A stretch of DNA of 64,000 bases, from assembly GCA_937858275.1 (NCBI GenBank), contig CALLZK010000024.1, positions 72,745 to 136,744 on the forward strand, written 5' to 3'. Both the position numbers and the translations under genes were made by a program. The DNA comes from an uncultured bacterium (GTDB taxonomy: Bacteria > Patescibacteriota > Minisyncoccia > Phycocordibacterales > JAACPR01). Of this stretch, positions 934 to 38,626 are shown one piece after another (the stretch's first letter is position 1; every line of letters begins with the position of its first letter). A model generated the notes under the pieces. It did no database searches and was not told the DNA's origin. It worked only from the letters and a program-made list of their open reading frames with translations.

Positions 934-3915
934 TTATAAATTTTTTATCAAATTACAATACTGACAATCTTTTTTATTGCAACCCAGTTTTAGAATATCG
1001 CCCGAAAATATCTCTTTGGCCATTTTGTTAATTTGCATTTTCAAATCTAATTTATCTTTTTCTTCTACATTAACATAAAATCTCTCAAAATCATTTTTTT
1101 TGTTTTTTTGAACAAAATCTAAATACATTTGATTTATCGAAAAATTATTATCTTTATAATTTTCCAGCAATAATGCATAAAATACTAGTTGTCTTTTTAA
1201 GTTTTCTTTTTCTTGTTTGTCTGTTTTTTCTTTAAAAGTTTTTCCTGTTTTATAATCAACAATATTTATTTTTCCAGATCCAAGTGAATCAATAAATTCA
1301 ATTTTGTCCAAAATACCGCTTAAAATAATGGTTTTTCCAGAATCTAATATTAAATTTTTTGTTATTCTTTGTTCGGTTAAAACATTAAAATAGAAAGTTT
1401 TATGGTGGTTGTCATAATATTGATCTAAAACAGATACTCCTCTTTCTTTATATTTTTTAAAATCTTTACCGATTAAACTAGAATTGATTATATTCTGATT
1501 GAAAAAATTTAACAATTTTGTTTTCGGTAAAATCTTTTGAGATTTAAAGCATTCAACAAAAAAACTTTTTAGAGAGTTGTGGATCAAATTTCCAAAAACT
1601 GAATGAGGTTGATAATCTTCTGGAATTTTTATCAAGCTTCTGAATAAATATTTGTTTGGGCATTCCAAATAATTATTTAAAGCCGTGACACTCAAATTAG
1701 ATTCTAAAAACAAATTTGTAACATAATCTTTGTCTAAAATCTTATTTTTATTTTCAAAATGTGTAATAAAATTTGATACTTCTTTTAAGTTTTTATTTTC
1801 AAAATCTTTGGTATTTATTTTTTCCACACAATCATCGTCAATTTCATCAACAAATTGACTTTTTTCTTTTTCTTTTCCTTGCCAATCTGTGACAGAAAAA
1901 GAAATATTTAATTCTTTTTTTGCACGAGTCATTGCAACATAAAACAATCTTCTCTCATCATCAATATCGCCCTTAAAACTAGATATTGGCAAAGATATTT
2001 TTGAGAAACCCCTACTTTTTTCCCAATTACTTCTTGTGGAATTTATAATATAAACAAACTCAAATTCTAAACCCTTGGATTTGTGGGCGGTTAATAAATT
2101 TACCCCACCAACAATTTCTGGATCATCTGATTTTATATCCAAATTATATTTTAAATAATAATCAACAAATTTTATAAAATCTGTTAAAGAATAATTTTTG
2201 TTAGAATCAATTTGTCTTTTTATTTCATCAAATATTTTATCTATTTTTAGGATTTGTTCTTGACCATTATTGGATTTTAACATGAAAGACAAATACCCCG
2301 TTTCTTGCAAAAATAATTTGAAAAATTCTGCAAAATTTAAATTTTTAGATTTGACCTTCAAATCTTTAATTTTTTCAAAAAAGTTATCAAACTCTTTTAA
2401 TTTATCGTTTTTTAAAATAAATTCTGACAAAAATTCTTTGCCATTTCTATTATAAACATCAAATTCTTTTAAAATTTTTGTAACAACATAGGGATCAAAT
2501 TTCAAAAAATCAATAAATAAAGATCTTGATAAGTATTCGTTTGATATTGGATTTTCTATTAATTTTAATAAATTTATCAAATTAGAAATATTTTTATCAT
2601 TTAATAAATTCTCTTTAGATAAAATTGTATATGGGACTTTATGTTTTACAAATAATTCCTTTAGATCTTCAATTTCTTTATTGGAACGATAAATTATAGC
2701 TATTTGTTCTGGTGCTATTCCGGATTTTATTTTTTGAGAAATATCTTGAGCCAAAAATAACATTTCAAATTTGTAATTAGAAAATTGATAAATTTTTACT
2801 AATTGATCTTTTGTTAAATTAGAATTTAGTTTAAATGACTCAGGTATTGTGTGAGCGATCAAAGAATGTGCTGAATCTAATATTTTTTGACCAGATCTAT
2901 AGTTTTCCAATAAATTAATATAAATAATATCATTATATATTTTATTAAAATGTTTGAATGTTTTTAGACTTGCTCCTTGAAATCTATAAATTGATTGTTT
3001 TTCGTCTCCAACCGTAAAAAGGTTTGGTCTTTTATTTAGATGTTTTGCATCAGTCAAAAACTCTATGATTTTATTTTGACCCTCATTTGTATCTTGATGT
3101 TCATCAACCAAAATATATTGATATTTTTCTTGTAAATCCAATCTAAGATTTTTGTTTTTTTGCAACTGCAACAATACAGACAAAATCATATCGTTGAAAT
3201 CATACAAATTTTGTTCTTTTAATTTGTCTTGATATATTTGAAAAAAATTTGCAATTTGTTTTACTTTTTTAATTTTAGTATCAATTTTATCTTTCTCAGA
3301 AGGTTTTAAATCCCCCTTTTTATAATCGCCAGTATTTTTTTTATAATAAAGGTCATCACTAGATAACATTTCTTTTTCCCATAAAGGAATTCTGGATAAT
3401 AAATCTTTTGGTGATAGGCCTTCTTGTTTTAAATCATTTAAAGCACCGGCAATTTGTTTTAAACTAGAAAAAGGATCATTTGGTGATTGTAAATCGGGAA
3501 AATCATTTTCTTTCATAATTTCTTCTAAAATTTTAAATTTTTGAAAATCAGTTATGATTTTTGAGTATTCCAATTCTTTAAAATAAAAAGAAAATTCACG
3601 AATAATATTTTCCGCGAAAGAATGAAAAGTAAATATGTTAACTCGATAAGCCCTGTCACCAATATAATCCAAAAGTTTTTTTCTCATAGCCATAACACCG
3701 GAATTGGTAAAGGTTAATGCCAAAATATTTTCCGGCATCATGTCAGTTTTCAATAAAATATTAGCAATTCTAAGTGTTAAAATTGTGGTTTTTCCTGTTC
3801 CGGGACCTGCGATAACCATCACAGGACCTTCTATTGTATCAACCGCTTTTTTTTGTTCTTTATTTAAATTTTTATATGCTTTGTCAAAATTAGCACTTGA
3901 TTGTTTTTTGGTCAT
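934..3915 (-). CDS. UvrD/PcrA-family helicase fused to a C-terminal PD-(D/E)XK (Cas4/AddB-like) nuclease domain with a 4-Cys cluster
   Basis: N-terminus has Walker A AGPGTGKTT and UvrD helicase motifs (TFH, VDEHQDTN, QSIYRFQGA). The C-terminal approximately 250 aa has CPNKY...DYKTGK...QLVFY...CNKKDCQYC, typical of RecB-family nucleases with an Fe-S cluster. Confidence 0.8.
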   Translation of the reverse strand: MTKKQSSANFDKAYKNLNKEQKKAVDTIEGPVMVIAGPGTGKTTILTLRIANILLKTDMMPENILALTFTNSGVMAMRKKLLDYIGDRAYRVNIFTFHSFAENIIREFSFYFKELEYSKIITDFQKFKILEEIMKENDFPDLQSPNDPFSSLKQIAGALNDLKQEGLSPKDLLSRIPLWEKEMLSSDDLYYKKNTGDYKKGDLKPSEKDKIDTKIKKVKQIANFFQIYQDKLKEQNLYDFNDMILSVLLQLQKNKNLRLDLQEKYQYILVDEHQDTNEGQNKIIEFLTDAKHLNKRPNLFTVGDEKQSIYRFQGASLKTFKHFNKIYNDIIYINLLENYRSGQKILDSAHSLIAHTIPESFKLNSNLTKDQLVKIYQFSNYKFEMLFLAQDISQKIKSGIAPEQIAIIYRSNKEIEDLKELFVKHKVPYTILSKENLLNDKNISNLINLLKLIENPISNEYLSRSLFIDFLKFDPYVVTKILKEFDVYNRNGKEFLSEFILKNDKLKEFDNFFEKIKDLKVKSKNLNFAEFFKLFLQETGYLSFMLKSNNGQEQILKIDKIFDEIKRQIDSNKNYSLTDFIKFVDYYLKYNLDIKSDDPEIVGGVNLLTAHKSKGLEFEFVYIINSTRSNWEKSRGFSKISLPISSFKGDIDDERRLFYVAMTRAKKELNISFSVTDWQGKEKEKSQFVDEIDDDCVEKINTKDFENKNLKEVSNFITHFENKNKILDKDYVTNLFLESNLSVTALNNYLECPNKYLFRSLIKIPEDYQPHSVFGNLIHNSLKSFFVECFKSQKILPKTKLLNFFNQNIINSSLIGKDFKKYKERGVSVLDQYYDNHHKTFYFNVLTEQRITKNLILDSGKTIILSGILDKIEFIDSLGSGKINIVDYKTGKTFKEKTDKQEKENLKRQLVFYALLLENYKDNNFSINQMYLDFVQKNKKNDFERFYVNVEEKDKLDLKMQINKMAKEIFSGDILKLGCNKKDCQYCNLIKNL

Positions 3916-15721: not shown

Positions 15722-17686
15722 ATGATTAAAAAAGACAATAATACAAATTCAAAAAAAATTATAGAAGGAAAAATTACCACAACCGGAAAAGGACTTGGTT
15801 TTATAGCCAATTTTGATGATAAAGATGATGTTTTAATAGAAAAAAATGATTTAAAAACCGCATTAAATGGCGATAATGTAAGAGTTCAAATTTTACCAGA
15901 AGAAAAAGATGGTAGAACACTAGGAAAAGTTATTGCTGTTTTGGGAAGATTTAGAGAACAATTTGTGGGGACAGTTTTTAAAACTGAAAATATTTGTTTT
16001 GTAAAACCAGATAGTCACAAAATATATACAAATTTTTTATTATCAGATTCTGATATTTTGAAAGTGAAAAATAATGACAAGGTTTTGGTTAAATTTATAA
16101 AATGGGATGAAACAGATTCTGGTCCAACAGTTTCTGTTATAAAAATAATTGGAGAAAAAGGAAATCATGAAACAGAAATTCAATCTATAATTTTTGAAAA
16201 AGGATTTGATGCAAAATTTAAAATAGAAATAGAAAATGAGGCAAAAATTTTAAAAGAAAAATGGTCTCCTATTCCGCAAACAGAAATTGAAAAAAGAAAA
16301 GATTTGCGAAATGAAGATGTAATGACAATAGATCCTGTTGATGCAAAAGATTTTGATGATGCCTTACACATAAAAAAACTGCCTAATGGAAATTTTGAAA
16401 TTGGAATTCACATTGCTGATGTTTCTCATTTTGTAACACCAAATACGGCCCTAGACGAAGAAGCATATCAAAGAGGCTCTTCTGTTTATTTGGTTGATAG
16501 AACAATACCAATGTTACCAGAAATACTTTCAAACGATTTGTGTAGTCTAAACCCGAAAGAAGACAAGTTGGCATTTAGCTCTATTTTTGAAATGAATCAA
16601 AATGCAGAAATTATTTCTCGTTGGTTTGGAAAAACAATTATAAATTCCAAAAAAAGATTTACCTACGAAGAAGCACAAGCAATTTTGGATGCTGGTAGTG
16701 GAATATTTTATGAAGAACTAAATCAATTAAATATTTTAGCCAAAATCTTAAACAAAAGAAACAAAGAGGCTGGGGCAATTGAATTTGAAAAAGAAGAAAT
16801 AAAATTTGAACTGGATCAAAACGGCAGACCTATAAAAATAATAAAAAAAGAACCTTTAGAAACTCATAAATTAGTTGAAAATATGATGCTTTTATCAAAT
16901 CGTGAAGTGGCGAAATTTATTCATGACAAAGGTAAAAAATTTGGCGGAGATCAAAATGTTTTGATTTATCGAGTTCACTCTACACCCGACAAAGACAAAG
17001 TTAATGATTTGGTAAGTTTTGTAAAATTATTGGGTTATAATTTAAAATTAGAAAAAGATGGTGAACTTCGTGCCAGAAATCTCAATGATTTGTTTGAAAA
17101 AATTCAAGGCAGAGACGAAGAGCAGTTAATAAAATCTGTTGCAATCAAAACAATGAGCAAAGCCGTTTATGCAAATGAAAATTCTGGACATTTTGGTTTG
17201 GCATTTGAGTATTATACACATTTCACTTCACCCATCAGAAGATATCCCGATTTGTTGGTTCACAGAGTTTTGGCAAAATTTTTGGATGATAAAAAATTAG
17301 AAAAAAGTGAAATTATTAGATTAGAAAAAGGAGCAATTTTATCAACCGAAAGAGAAATATCGGCCGCTGAAGCAGAAAGAGAGTCCATAAAATATAAACA
17401 AGCAGAATACATGCAAGATCATATTGGTGAAGAATTTGAAGGTATAGTTTCTGGAGTTTCTCCGTGGGGGCTTTATGTTCAAATAAAAGAAACTTTATCT
17501 GAGGGCATGGTTCATATTTCAAAATTAGGAAATGATTATTTCAAATTAGATGAAGAAAAATATCAAATTGTAGGAGAAAAAACTGGACAAATTTTCCGAT
17601 TGAGTGATAAACTAATTGTAAAAATAGAATCTATTGATCTTGAAAGAAATAATATCAATATGGCAGTTATAAAAATCTTAAAATAA
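15722..17686 (+). CDS. rnr: Ribonuclease R / exoribonuclease II family (RNB domain plus C-terminal S1)
   Basis: RNB catalytic motifs DPVDAKDFDDALH and HFGLAFEYYTHFTSPIRRYPDLLVHR. C-terminal S1-like region GIVSGVSPWGLYVQI. Confidence 0.9.
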   Translation: MIKKDNNTNSKKIIEGKITTTGKGLGFIANFDDKDDVLIEKNDLKTALNGDNVRVQILPEEKDGRTLGKVIAVLGRFREQFVGTVFKTENICFVKPDSHKIYTNFLLSDSDILKVKNNDKVLVKFIKWDETDSGPTVSVIKIIGEKGNHETEIQSIIFEKGFDAKFKIEIENEAKILKEKWSPIPQTEIEKRKDLRNEDVMTIDPVDAKDFDDALHIKKLPNGNFEIGIHIADVSHFVTPNTALDEEAYQRGSSVYLVDRTIPMLPEILSNDLCSLNPKEDKLAFSSIFEMNQNAEIISRWFGKTIINSKKRFTYEEAQAILDAGSGIFYEELNQLNILAKILNKRNKEAGAIEFEKEEIKFELDQNGRPIKIIKKEPLETHKLVENMMLLSNREVAKFIHDKGKKFGGDQNVLIYRVHSTPDKDKVNDLVSFVKLLGYNLKLEKDGELRARNLNDLFEKIQGRDEEQLIKSVAIKTMSKAVYANENSGHFGLAFEYYTHFTSPIRRYPDLLVHRVLAKFLDDKKLEKSEIIRLEKGAILSTEREISAAEAERESIKYKQAEYMQDHIGEEFEGIVSGVSPWGLYVQIKETLSEGMVHISKLGNDYFKLDEEKYQIVGEKTGQIFRLSDKLIVKIESIDLERNNINMAVIKILK

Positions 17687-17693
17687 TTTTAAT

Positions 17694-17721
17694 TTGACAA
17701 AATTAAATAAAGAAATAATAT
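17694..17721 (+). promoter_or_regulatory. Predicted promoter TTGACA-16-TAATAT for the small Cys-rich gene
   Basis: TTGACA at 17694-17699 and TAATAT at 17716-17721. AAGGAG Shine-Dalgarno at 17746-17751, 7 nt before the GTG start. Confidence 0.45.
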
Positions 17722-17758
17722 ATTTATTTGAACCAGAACAAAAGAAAGGAGATTTGTA

Positions 17759-18040
17759 GTGAAAAAGCAATATTGCAGGAACAGAAACAAAAACGGGCAA
17801 CGGTGCTCTGGAAAAATAAATCACAGCATCGTTATTCCGATCAAGAAACGAATTCGAACAATTATTGCCGGTTGTCCGTGTGTAATCTGCGGTCTTGTGC
17901 ACTGTTTTAAGACCGGTCGTGTGGCAATTGATTTTGAACATGGTCGAATTTATCACAGACCAAAAATCAAAAAACAATTGCCGAAAAAAGGAATACGTTT
18001 TTGCAGACAGAAAGGGGGTTACAAATACGGTAACATATAA
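17759..18040 (+). CDS. Small highly basic Cys-rich protein (93 aa), function unknown; compositionally atypical gene
   Basis: GTG start with a strong Shine-Dalgarno. Seven Cys including the CPCVICGLVHC cluster. Local GC is about 40-48% against about 25% flanking. Own promoter and an intrinsic terminator. Confidence 0.5.
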   Translation: MKKQYCRNRNKNGQRCSGKINHSIVIPIKKRIRTIIAGCPCVICGLVHCFKTGRVAIDFEHGRIYHRPKIKKQLPKKGIRFCRQKGGYKYGNI

Positions 18041-18044
18041 AAAT

Positions 18045-18095
18045 GACGGGTGTGTTTCTCTGAGACGCACCCGTCTTCTATATTTTTATTTTTTT
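18045..18095 (+). terminator. Rho-independent terminator (GACGGGTG...CACCCGTC followed by a T-run)
   Basis: An 8-bp GC-rich stem followed by TTCTATATTTTTATTTTTTT. Confidence 0.7.
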
Positions 18096-18106
18096 AAAAT
18101 AAAAAT

Positions 18107-37424: not shown

Positions 37425-37760
37425 ATGATAGATAATCACCCTCACAGAAAAGAAAAGATTTTAGAAATTATAACTCATTCAGCATCCGAGTTTATTCAAA
37501 AAGAGTCCAATCAAAACTCAATGATCACAGTTACAAGAGCGGAACTTTCTTCAGACTTTCAAAAAGCCGATATTTTTGTTACAGTTTTTCCAGACGACAA
37601 AGAAGAAAAAGCGATTGAGTTTTTAAAAAGAAACTTGAATGAATTTAGAGATTTTGTAAAATCAAAAACCAGACTTCAGCATATTCCGTGGTTTGATTTT
37701 AAAATAGATCAAGGTGAGAAAAAAAGACAAAGAATTGACGAACTGTCTTTAAAAATTTAA
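37425..37760 (+). CDS. rbfA: Ribosome-binding factor A
   Basis: RbfA-like core ...SMITVTRAELSSDFQKADIFVTVF..., located immediately after infB. The ATG at 37425 lies 1 nt after the infB stop. The six-frame track gives an alternative upstream start at 37404. Confidence 0.8.
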   Translation: MIDNHPHRKEKILEIITHSASEFIQKESNQNSMITVTRAELSSDFQKADIFVTVFPDDKEEKAIEFLKRNLNEFRDFVKSKTRLQHIPWFDFKIDQGEKKRQRIDELSLKI

Positions 37761-37763
37761 AAT

Positions 37764-37835
37764 GGCGTGGTGGCGAAGTGGAAACGCTGCGGTCTGCAAA
37801 ACCGCCATGCGCGGGTTCGATTCCCGCCCACGCCT
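37764..37835 (+). tRNA. tRNA-Cys (GCA)
   Basis: Acceptor stem GGCGTGG/CCACGCC, anticodon loop CTGCAAA, T-arm GCGGGTTCGATTCCCGC, discriminator U as is typical for tRNA-Cys. Confidence 0.8.
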
Positions 37836-37867
37836 CAAGTTTGAAAATATTTTCAAACAAAAATAAA

Positions 37868-37949
37868 GCCCGGGTGGCGGAATTGGTATACGCGCACGAC
37901 TTAAAATCGTGTCCCTTACGGGTTGCGGGTTCGACCCCCGCCCCGGGCA
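37868..37949 (+). tRNA. tRNA-Leu (TAA), type II
   Basis: Acceptor stem GCCCGGG/CCCGGGC, anticodon stem-loop CACGA-CTTAAAA-TCGTG, long variable arm, T-arm GCGGGTTCGACCCCCGC. Confidence 0.85.
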
Positions 37950-38007
37950 CAAATAGAAAGTTTTAAAATTACAAGTGCACTCGCACGACTTTCTATTCAA
38001 ATATTTG

Positions 38008-38050
38008 CGTGTCCCTTACGGGTTGCGGGTTCGACCCCCGCCCCGGGCAC
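38008..38050 (+). repeat. 43-nt direct duplicate of the 3' portion of tRNA-Leu(TAA) (identical to 37908-37950), exactly 100 bp downstream
   Basis: CGTGTCCCTTACGGGTTGCGGGTTCGACCCCCGCCCCGGGCAC occurs twice. The intervening 57 bp contains a 10-bp inverted repeat AATAGAAAGT/ACTTTCTATT. Confidence 0.85.
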
Positions 38051-38061
38051 AATAAAATAAA

Positions 38062-38134
38062 CCGCCCATAGCTCAGTTGGTAGAGCACCCGCCTCTTAAG
38101 CGGAGGGTCGTAGGTTCAAATCCTACTGGGCGGA
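38062..38134 (+). tRNA. tRNA-Lys (CTT)
   Basis: Acceptor stem CCGCCCA/TGGGCGG, D-arm GCTCAGTTGGTAGAGC, anticodon loop CTCTTAA, T-arm GTAGGTTCAAATCCTAC. Confidence 0.8.
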
Positions 38135-38192
38135 CAAAAATAATTTAAAAATCTTGCTTAGTTATGTTTTTATGTGTAATATATTTAACATT

Positions 38193-38273
38193 GCGCGGGT
38201 GGTGAAATGGCAGACACGCTTGCCTTAGGAGCAAGTGCCGCAAGGCATGGAGGTTCAAGTCCTCTCCCGCGCA
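38193..38273 (+). tRNA. tRNA-Leu (TAG), type II
   Basis: Acceptor stem GCGCGGG/CCCGCGC, anticodon stem-loop CTTGC-CTTAGGA-GCAAG, long variable arm, T-arm GGAGGTTCAAGTCCTCT. Confidence 0.85.
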
Positions 38274-38626
38274 CATAAAACAAAGGAGGAGGATGCGAAA
38301 GCATTCTCCGACTTTTGTTTTACAAGCGGAGAGGGCTTGAAAGCCGGACTGAGTAAAAAGAGCGGAGCGATTTTTTACGAAGGAGGCGGGGTCGCGAGTT
38401 TCGAGGCAAAGCCGAGAAAATTTGTGACCAAGTCCTCTCCCGCGCACATAAAACAAAGGAGGAGGATGCGAAAGCATTCTCCGACTTTTGTTTTACAAGC
38501 GGAGAGGGCTTGAAAGCCGGACTGAGTAAAAAGAGCGGAGCGATTTTTTACGAAGGAGGCGGGGTCGCGAGTTTCGAGGCAAAGCCGAGAAAACTTGTGA
38601 CCAAGTCCTCTCCCGCGCACATAAAA
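38256..38626 (+). repeat. 173-bp tandem repeat, about 2.1 copies, each unit beginning with the last approximately 19 nt of tRNA-Leu(TAG)
   Basis: Units at 38256-38428 and 38429-38601, plus a partial third copy at 38602-38626. The full units differ by a single T/C. CAAGTCCTCTCCCGCGCACATAAAA recurs three times. Confidence 0.9.

Follow-up and report, generated by a model that had tools for sequence, protein, structure and literature searches.

An unannotated gene for a small, basic, cysteine-containing orphan protein at the convergent rnr/smc junction of three related Paceibacterota genomes

In the window, by which we mean the whole stretch of 64,000 nucleotides analysed here, the stop codon of rnr (15722..17686, plus strand) is separated by 420 nt from the stop codon of the convergent gene smc (18107..20386, minus strand). 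The upstream gene encodes a 654-aa RNase R, for which Pfam OB_RNB/CSD2/RNB/S1 matches are on record under the identical product P0004. For the downstream gene, SMC_N/AAA_23 matches are on record for an identical gene; its longest ORF comprises 759 codons and gene callers arrive at a product of 748 aa. Between the two lies a CDS for a basic, Cys-rich protein of 93 aa on the plus strand (17759..18040, GTG start, TAA stop), which appears in the ORF list and is matched by two orthologues. The product contains 7 Cys and 24 Lys+Arg (26%), in agreement with the original prediction of 93 residues with 7 Cys and about 25% Lys+Arg, and has a pI of 10.5 and a net charge of about +22. A sigma-70-type promoter (17694..17721, plus strand), with TTGACA at 17694, a spacer of 16 nt and TAATAT at 17716, reached 10 of 12 matches in a promoter scan, and a Shine-Dalgarno sequence AAGGAG (17746..17751, plus strand) is located 7 nt upstream of the GTG start. 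An intrinsic terminator (18045..18100, plus strand) is situated between the convergent stop codons and consists of a 14-bp, 8-GC hairpin (18045-18075) followed by a T-rich tract; the hairpin folds at -24.2 kcal/mol with a z-score of -7.0. Promoter, Shine-Dalgarno sequence, GTG-initiated ORF and terminator were all found in the places expected from the original prediction of a complete stand-alone unit.

When 1.84 billion cluster representatives were searched exhaustively with phmmer, three proteins matched, and of these P0002 alone is a genuine homologue; it has 91 aa and shares 49% identity with the window protein over residues 5-91 (E 1.6e-16). P0002 is encoded by PKA60_00325 in a Candidatus Paceibacterota MAG, and NCBI gives it no name beyond hypothetical protein. 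The two other matches, P0001 (4132 aa, E 2e-49) and P0003 (723 aa, E 4e-7), were rejected as tandem-repeat artefacts, as their scores sum 39 and 11 weak repeat matches, respectively; such sums are a pitfall when reading exhaustive phmmer output. The gene for P0002 sits between rnr and smc in the loci L081 and L082. In L081, the gene order is trmD, khpA, rpsP, rnr (plus strand), the small gene (plus strand), smc (minus strand), rnc, nusB-NUDIX, rpmF and rnhB, and the flanking genes rnr and smc are 78% and 71% identical to those of the window. P0002 was called from an internal ATG; translation from an upstream TTG yields MKKMKC, which aligns with MKKQYC at the start of the window protein. A third member of the family was found via close relatives of RNase R: in L083, where rnr is 77% identical, a gap of 504 nt without a called gene contains an uncalled orthologue of 103 codons with a GTG start (3140-3451) at the rnr/smc junction.

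Searches beyond these loci extended the family no further. A word-indexed protein search with the window protein gave no candidates, and the same kind of search with a two-sequence profile retrieved P0002 only. At the nucleotide level, comparison of the segment with 80 GTDB loci chosen by their rnr genes produced chance matches only, and a protein profile run against six-frame translations of 95 loci plus the window gave matches confined to the three carrier genomes. In the JGI metagenomes, profile-derived patterns yielded 600 junk matches and a 43-bit N-terminal pattern none. No homologue of the small protein was found in a scan of IMG/VR, tblastn against phage records returned one chance match (E 0.7) and tblastn against plasmid records no match. 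On the strength of these searches, the small gene constitutes an orphan family that so far is confined to three related Paceibacterota genomes and always located at the convergent rnr/smc junction. The genome of the window and that of L081, whose rnr genes are 78% identical, were both assembled from run SRR2107180, so that two related species with diverged copies of the gene co-occur in one sample.

The expression signals recur in the orthologues. In L081, the promoter hexamers and the spacing of 16 nt are identical to those of the window although the sequence of the spacer has diverged, and in L083 the promoter reads TTGACT-17-TAGGAT. AAGGAG or GGAG is kept upstream of the start in all three orthologues, and none of them starts with ATG (GTG at 17759 in the window, TTG at 5992 in L081 and GTG at 3140 in L083). 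The combination of non-ATG starts with a good GGAG may point to a deliberately low rate of translation initiation. A hairpin followed by a U-run is present 3' of the stop codon in each of the three genomes, and the sequences of these hairpins are unrelated; a simple terminator scan flagged that of the window only and missed those of L081 and L083. As far as can be judged from these sequence elements, the small gene is an independently transcribed unit with conserved expression signals, which are kept in function rather than in sequence.

The composition of the segment is unusual for its genome. The ORF has a mean GC content of 39%, compared to 31% for the whole window, and around the gene GC peaks at 43-44% in 100-nt windows and ranges from 35 to 40% in 200-nt windows; the elevation that had been predicted is real, whereas the figure of 40-48% given for it was somewhat overstated. 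The codon adaptation index of the 93-codon ORF is 0.47, compared to 0.70 +/- 0.06 for the 34 long ORFs of the window, and its GC content at codon positions 1, 2 and 3 is flat (0.41/0.40/0.38), whereas the long ORFs show 0.43/0.31/0.20. The high GC3 is shared by the orthologues: it amounts to 0.38-0.39 in the window (17759-18037), in L081 (5992-6273) and in L083 (3140-3448), whereas rnr and smc on either side have values of 0.17-0.28 (binomial p for the three genomes 3e-6, 6e-3 and 1e-3). This elevation persists despite saturated synonymous divergence. The 93-codon ORF is overlapped by ORFs of 60 and 75 codons in the other plus-strand frames and by one of 130 codons on the antisense strand. Its length alone is within chance expectation; it is the conservation in two other genomes, as seen in the alignments, that lifts the ORF above chance.

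The pattern of substitutions bears on whether the conserved product is a protein or an RNA. When the intergenic DNA of the window and L081 was aligned with MAFFT without reference to any frame, mismatch frequencies at codon positions 1, 2 and 3 of the ORF were 0.39, 0.28 and 0.57. Indels within the ORF measured 3 and 12 nt and were in frame, whereas those outside measured 3, 4, 7 and 12 nt. The codon-position pattern was found in all three pairs of genomes (chi-square p 1.1e-4 to 1.7e-4). Across the same three pairs, pN/pS of the small gene was 0.41-0.49 with saturated synonymous sites (pS 0.74-0.86), compared to a pN/pS of 0.21 for rnr and 0.30 for smc. Differing synonymous codons are used at 24 of 31 invariant residues, for example AGG, CGC and AGA for the same Arg, and for Cys both TGC and TGT occur, varying from genome to genome, indicating that conservation acts at the amino-acid level. 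The frame of the 93-codon ORF is also the only one that is open in all three genomes. These conservation statistics are thin in that they rest on three sequences only; judged by them, the segment is a genuine protein-coding gene under purifying selection at the protein level.

The alternative of a structured non-coding RNA in which the ORF is incidental is extremely unlikely in the face of this codon periodicity and the in-frame indels, although several properties of the segment would fit it. The window RNA folds better than shuffled sequences (z -4.0 when the terminator is included and -3.3 when the fold is limited to the ORF), GC is raised in an AT-rich genome, codon usage is atypical and several frames are open across the segment. 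Folding is not conserved, however: the z-scores of the ORF alone are -3.3, -2.1 and +0.2 in the three orthologues, and RNAalifold gave only a weak consensus for the 415 alignment columns (-12.5 kcal/mol), to which covariation contributes unfavourably (+1.9). At gathering scores, Rfam detected only tRNAs in the window and nothing at the small gene, and with the limit relaxed to E 10 the segment gave noise, the best score being 19.9 bits against a threshold of 52 (gathering scores 37-376). RNase P RNA, tmRNA, 6S RNA and SRP RNA, which had been suspected initially, were rejected on the negative results of Rfam and ARAGORN, the latter of which detected no tmRNA. The check for a non-coding RNA that accompanied the original prediction, by Rfam and by homologue alignments, therefore came out on the side of a protein: no Rfam match, in-frame indels, variation at third positions and no conserved structure.

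Public annotations of the segment lack the gene or place one on the wrong strand. The window is identical to, or one base off, contigs in ENA ERZ794913, Logan SRR2107180 and NCBI GCA_035327505.1 (DAOLDF010000010.1). NCBI calls no gene between rnr and smc in this genome, and the Logan calls for L083 contain nothing at the site of the orthologue. In L085 and L087 (ENA and Logan), the antisense ORF of 130 codons (17678..18070, minus strand) is called as a 130-aa product, and naive longest-ORF tiling picks it as well. In L081, stop codons interrupt this antisense frame, leaving no open run longer than 63-65 codons, and in the alignment of the window with L081 its most variable site would be codon position 1. 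By these comparisons, the antisense ORF is not a gene; it probably stays open because the real gene makes little use of those Leu and Ser codons that read as stops on the opposite strand. Exact-sequence look-ups did not find the 93-aa product on record, owing to the wrong-strand call or the missing call.

In a neighbour-joining tree of rnr, the three carriers form a single clade. Among the sister clade and other relatives, the gap between rnr and smc measures 20 nt in L089, 35 nt in L088 and 42 nt in L050, and in the more distant L093 it is reduced to 3 nt; these gaps of 3-42 nt in close relatives bear out the earlier view that the segment interrupts a conserved neighbourhood. In L084, a gap of 544 nt has unrelated content, including an ORF for a 75-aa hydrophobic protein on the other strand. 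The promoter-gene-terminator cassette was probably gained once, in the common ancestor of the carriers. Convergent rnr and smc genes are common across 80 GTDB representatives, with gaps of about 10 to 1400 nt that contain unrelated ORFs. The gap contents differ by lineage, with an ORF of 279 aa in L010 and one of 221 aa in L018. From these gene arrangements, the convergent rnr/smc junction looks like a recurrent insertion hotspot across Patescibacteria. Because insertions at this permissive junction are frequent, the position of the gene says little about a functional connection with rnr or smc.

The three proteins have a pI of 10.2-10.5 and a net charge of +15 to +22, and those of the window and L083 comprise 93-103 aa. 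In the three-way alignment, four Cys are invariant, C6 (17774-17776), C16 (17804-17806), C41 (17879-17881) and C44 (17888-17890; all plus strand), spaced C-x9-C-x24-C-x2-C, together with two His, H48 (17900-17902) and H66 (17954-17956; both plus strand). Further residues shared by all three are R7, N8, R9, R15, G18, I20, N21, K30, R31, P40, L46, G53, A56, I57, D58, G62, R63, P75 and K76. They form the motifs C-R-N-R-x5-R-C-x-G-x-I-N, P-C-x2-C-x-L-x-H, G-[KR]-[IV]-A-I-D-x3-G-R-[IV]-x-H and P-K-[KR]-x-I-[RH]-[FY]. Four of the seven Cys of the window protein are conserved, and exactly these four are present in P0002, which is a whole-length orthologue at the same junction and differs in having only the invariant Cys and in its annotation as hypothetical. 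Within the stretch CPCVICGLVHC that had been highlighted in the original prediction, C41, C44 and H48 are conserved and the other Cys/His of the motif are not. The N-terminus, MKKQYCRNRNK, is polar and basic without a signal or leader, and the maximum 19-residue hydropathy in the two orthologues is 0.57 and 0.86. Neither of them contains a hydrophobic stretch, indicating a soluble cytoplasmic protein. In two independent AlphaFold2 runs, one each for the window protein and P0002, five beta strands were predicted in matching order and helices were absent; the pLDDT values were low (63.6 and 55.0, respectively).

The earlier impression that the protein belongs to no recognised family was confirmed, as no significant match was found in Pfam, NCBIfam, PHROGs, PADLOC or PDB profiles; Pfam, NCBIfam and PADLOC matched no family at all and no PDB sequence profile scored better than E 0.28. 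PHROGs contributed a weak match of the window protein to phrog_2255, an HNH endonuclease family (E 0.049, residues 5-62). An HNH endonuclease was rejected, as the profile matches only one of the three orthologues, the residue that would serve as the catalytic His, His22, is replaced by Thr in the other two and no helix is predicted; the HNH models of Pfam did not match the small protein. A twin CX9C protein was likewise rejected, since C-x9-C occurs only once and the models lack helices. With regard to the two knuckles of a zinc ribbon, C41-x2-C44 is the sole CxxC knuckle and the other invariant pair is C6-x9-C16.

The explanation that we favour, with a probability of roughly 55%, is that the gene encodes a lineage-restricted small protein that binds a metal, likely zinc, through four Cys and binds nucleic acid. 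The four Cys, with or without the participation of His, would coordinate a metal ion with a structural role, most likely Zn2+, which would stabilise a small beta-rich fold, and the Lys/Arg-rich surface together with the C-terminal tail would bind RNA or DNA. Metal binding and the nucleic-acid ligand, like the single gain of the gene, are what we infer. The original prediction of a Zn-ribbon nucleic-acid binder would hold in part: the four invariant Cys, the charge of +15 to +22 and the all-beta model are consistent with it, whereas the presence of one canonical CxxC only is not. The C-x9-C spacing of the first Cys pair, which is not a canonical zinc knuckle, is a point against the zinc reading, and the low AlphaFold2 confidence as well as the atypical codon usage and GC3 are points against the explanation as a whole. 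These proteins might also be the founders of an undescribed Cys4(His2) family that binds metal and nucleic acid, with a fold unlike known zinc ribbons. Such a family would have been born or captured at the rnr/smc junction within a single Paceibacterota subclade, and its persistently GC-rich third positions would reflect a further constraint, for instance a function of the mRNA itself or translation that is slowed in a regulated way. We consider this version unlikely.

Among the rivals to a metal- and nucleic-acid-binding protein, the highest-ranked is a zinc-finger micro-protein that binds a protein partner instead of nucleic acid, candidates being RNase R, the ribosome, RNA polymerase or SMC. 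Its small size and the four Cys would suit such a role, in each of the three genomes the gene directly follows rnr on the same strand, and small zinc-finger regulators of the CPxCG type are documented in haloarchaea (PMC2253796). However, with its own promoter and terminator the gene is not co-transcribed with rnr by design, its position is probably an accident of insertion at a junction that holds unrelated genes elsewhere, and the strong positive charge (+15 to +22) would be more usual in a protein that binds nucleic acid, so that we regard a protein-binding role as possible, though on the unlikely side. More doubtful than this, and ranked next, is that the gene is cargo of a selfish or defence insertion at a permissive convergent-terminator site, be it a solitary toxin, an anti-phage or anti-defence factor, or the remnant of a degenerate HNH-type nuclease. 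In favour of such cargo, codon usage and GC3 look foreign, and in comparison with the sister clade the segment is an insert, located at what appears to be a recurrent insertion site. The weak match to phrog_2255 would also fit, but it is limited to one of three orthologues, with His22 replaced by Thr in both others and no helix predicted. The site contains no ORF for a partner antitoxin, no repeats and no integrase, PADLOC gave no match and phage, plasmid and IMG/VR searches found no homologue. A pN/pS of 0.41-0.49 over saturated synonymous divergence also points to long-term maintenance of the gene. For the toxin considered in the original prediction in particular, both a partner gene and a PADLOC match are missing. 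The same prediction had listed the precursor of an antimicrobial peptide, and a secreted peptide or bacteriocin would be in keeping with a small, cationic, Cys-rich product. It is nevertheless very unlikely: a signal or leader at the N-terminus is absent, the low hydropathy maxima of the orthologues leave no conserved hydrophobic segment, three of the seven Cys in the window are not conserved, and the neighbours are rnr and smc, without genes for processing or maturation, export or immunity. Like the non-coding RNA, with which it shares the last place in the ranking, this precursor is essentially excluded.

Several known systems resemble the putative metal- and nucleic-acid-binding protein in part. 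Brz of Halobacterium salinarum is a small zinc-finger protein of the CPxCG type (PMC2253796). The protein described here resembles such zinc-ribbon/CPxCG proteins in its small size, its four Cys and one knuckle of the form (S/C)PCxxC(G/H), and its gene resembles Brz-type genes in standing alone in an apparently intergenic region where annotation easily misses it. It differs from them in its bacterial host (Patescibacteria), in having one canonical knuckle, in its length of 93-103 aa and in its long basic tail, and no match in sequence or structure to zinc-ribbon families was found for it. The likeness to HNH (beta-beta-alpha-Me) proteins, a Cys pair and a beta hairpin followed by CxxC and His, is superficial, as the candidate catalytic His varies, no alpha helix is predicted and two of the three proteins lack the profile match. 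In size, high positive charge and the beta-rich build of the low-confidence model, the protein is reminiscent of Cren7/Sso7d, and Cren7-DNA complexes were among the non-significant Foldseek matches (E 3.8-5.1). This analogy concerns the mode of action only, since Cren7/Sso7d proteins are archaeal, lack a Cys4 site and have no significant similarity to the small protein. The ribosomal proteins bL31, bL32, bL33, bL36 and uS14 are likewise small and basic with a Cys4 site and are RNA-binding zinc-ribbon proteins. Zinc-ribbon ribosomal proteins are near-universal in bacteria, in contrast to a gene found in three genomes only, with poor codon usage and no Pfam or NCBIfam match. In addition, bL32 has a separate gene nearby (22148-22369 in the window), whose L081 counterpart matches Pfam Ribosomal_L32p.

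The analysis adds a small real gene to genomes whose annotation lacks it or has it on the wrong strand, and it may serve as a worked example of how a small orphan gene can be told from a non-coding RNA and a shadow ORF with three genomes. It also documents the gain of a gene at a convergent-terminator junction that appears to be a recurrent insertion site across Patescibacteria. The gene was previously unannotated and is of a familiar kind, a small, basic Cys4 orphan protein, which will not surprise specialists. Hypothetical proteins restricted to one lineage abound in this group, and the impact of one more is modest unless a specific function emerges, for example as a partner in RNA decay or chromosome organisation.

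Some features of the neighbouring DNA deserve mention. On the minus strand of the window, an ORF of 308 aa (21124-22050) encodes an apparent NusB-NUDIX fusion, whose orthologues in L081, L082 and L089 have Pfam NusB and NUDIX matches. The SMC protein comprises only 748-759 aa in the window, as in all relatives fetched, whereas bacterial SMC proteins typically have about 1150-1200 aa, pointing to a shortened coiled coil. Further downstream, four tRNA genes, for Cys, Leu, Lys and Leu, are clustered at positions 37764-38274, and the naive ORFs 37749-38000 and 38145-38477, both on the minus strand and overlapping the tRNAs, are probably spurious.
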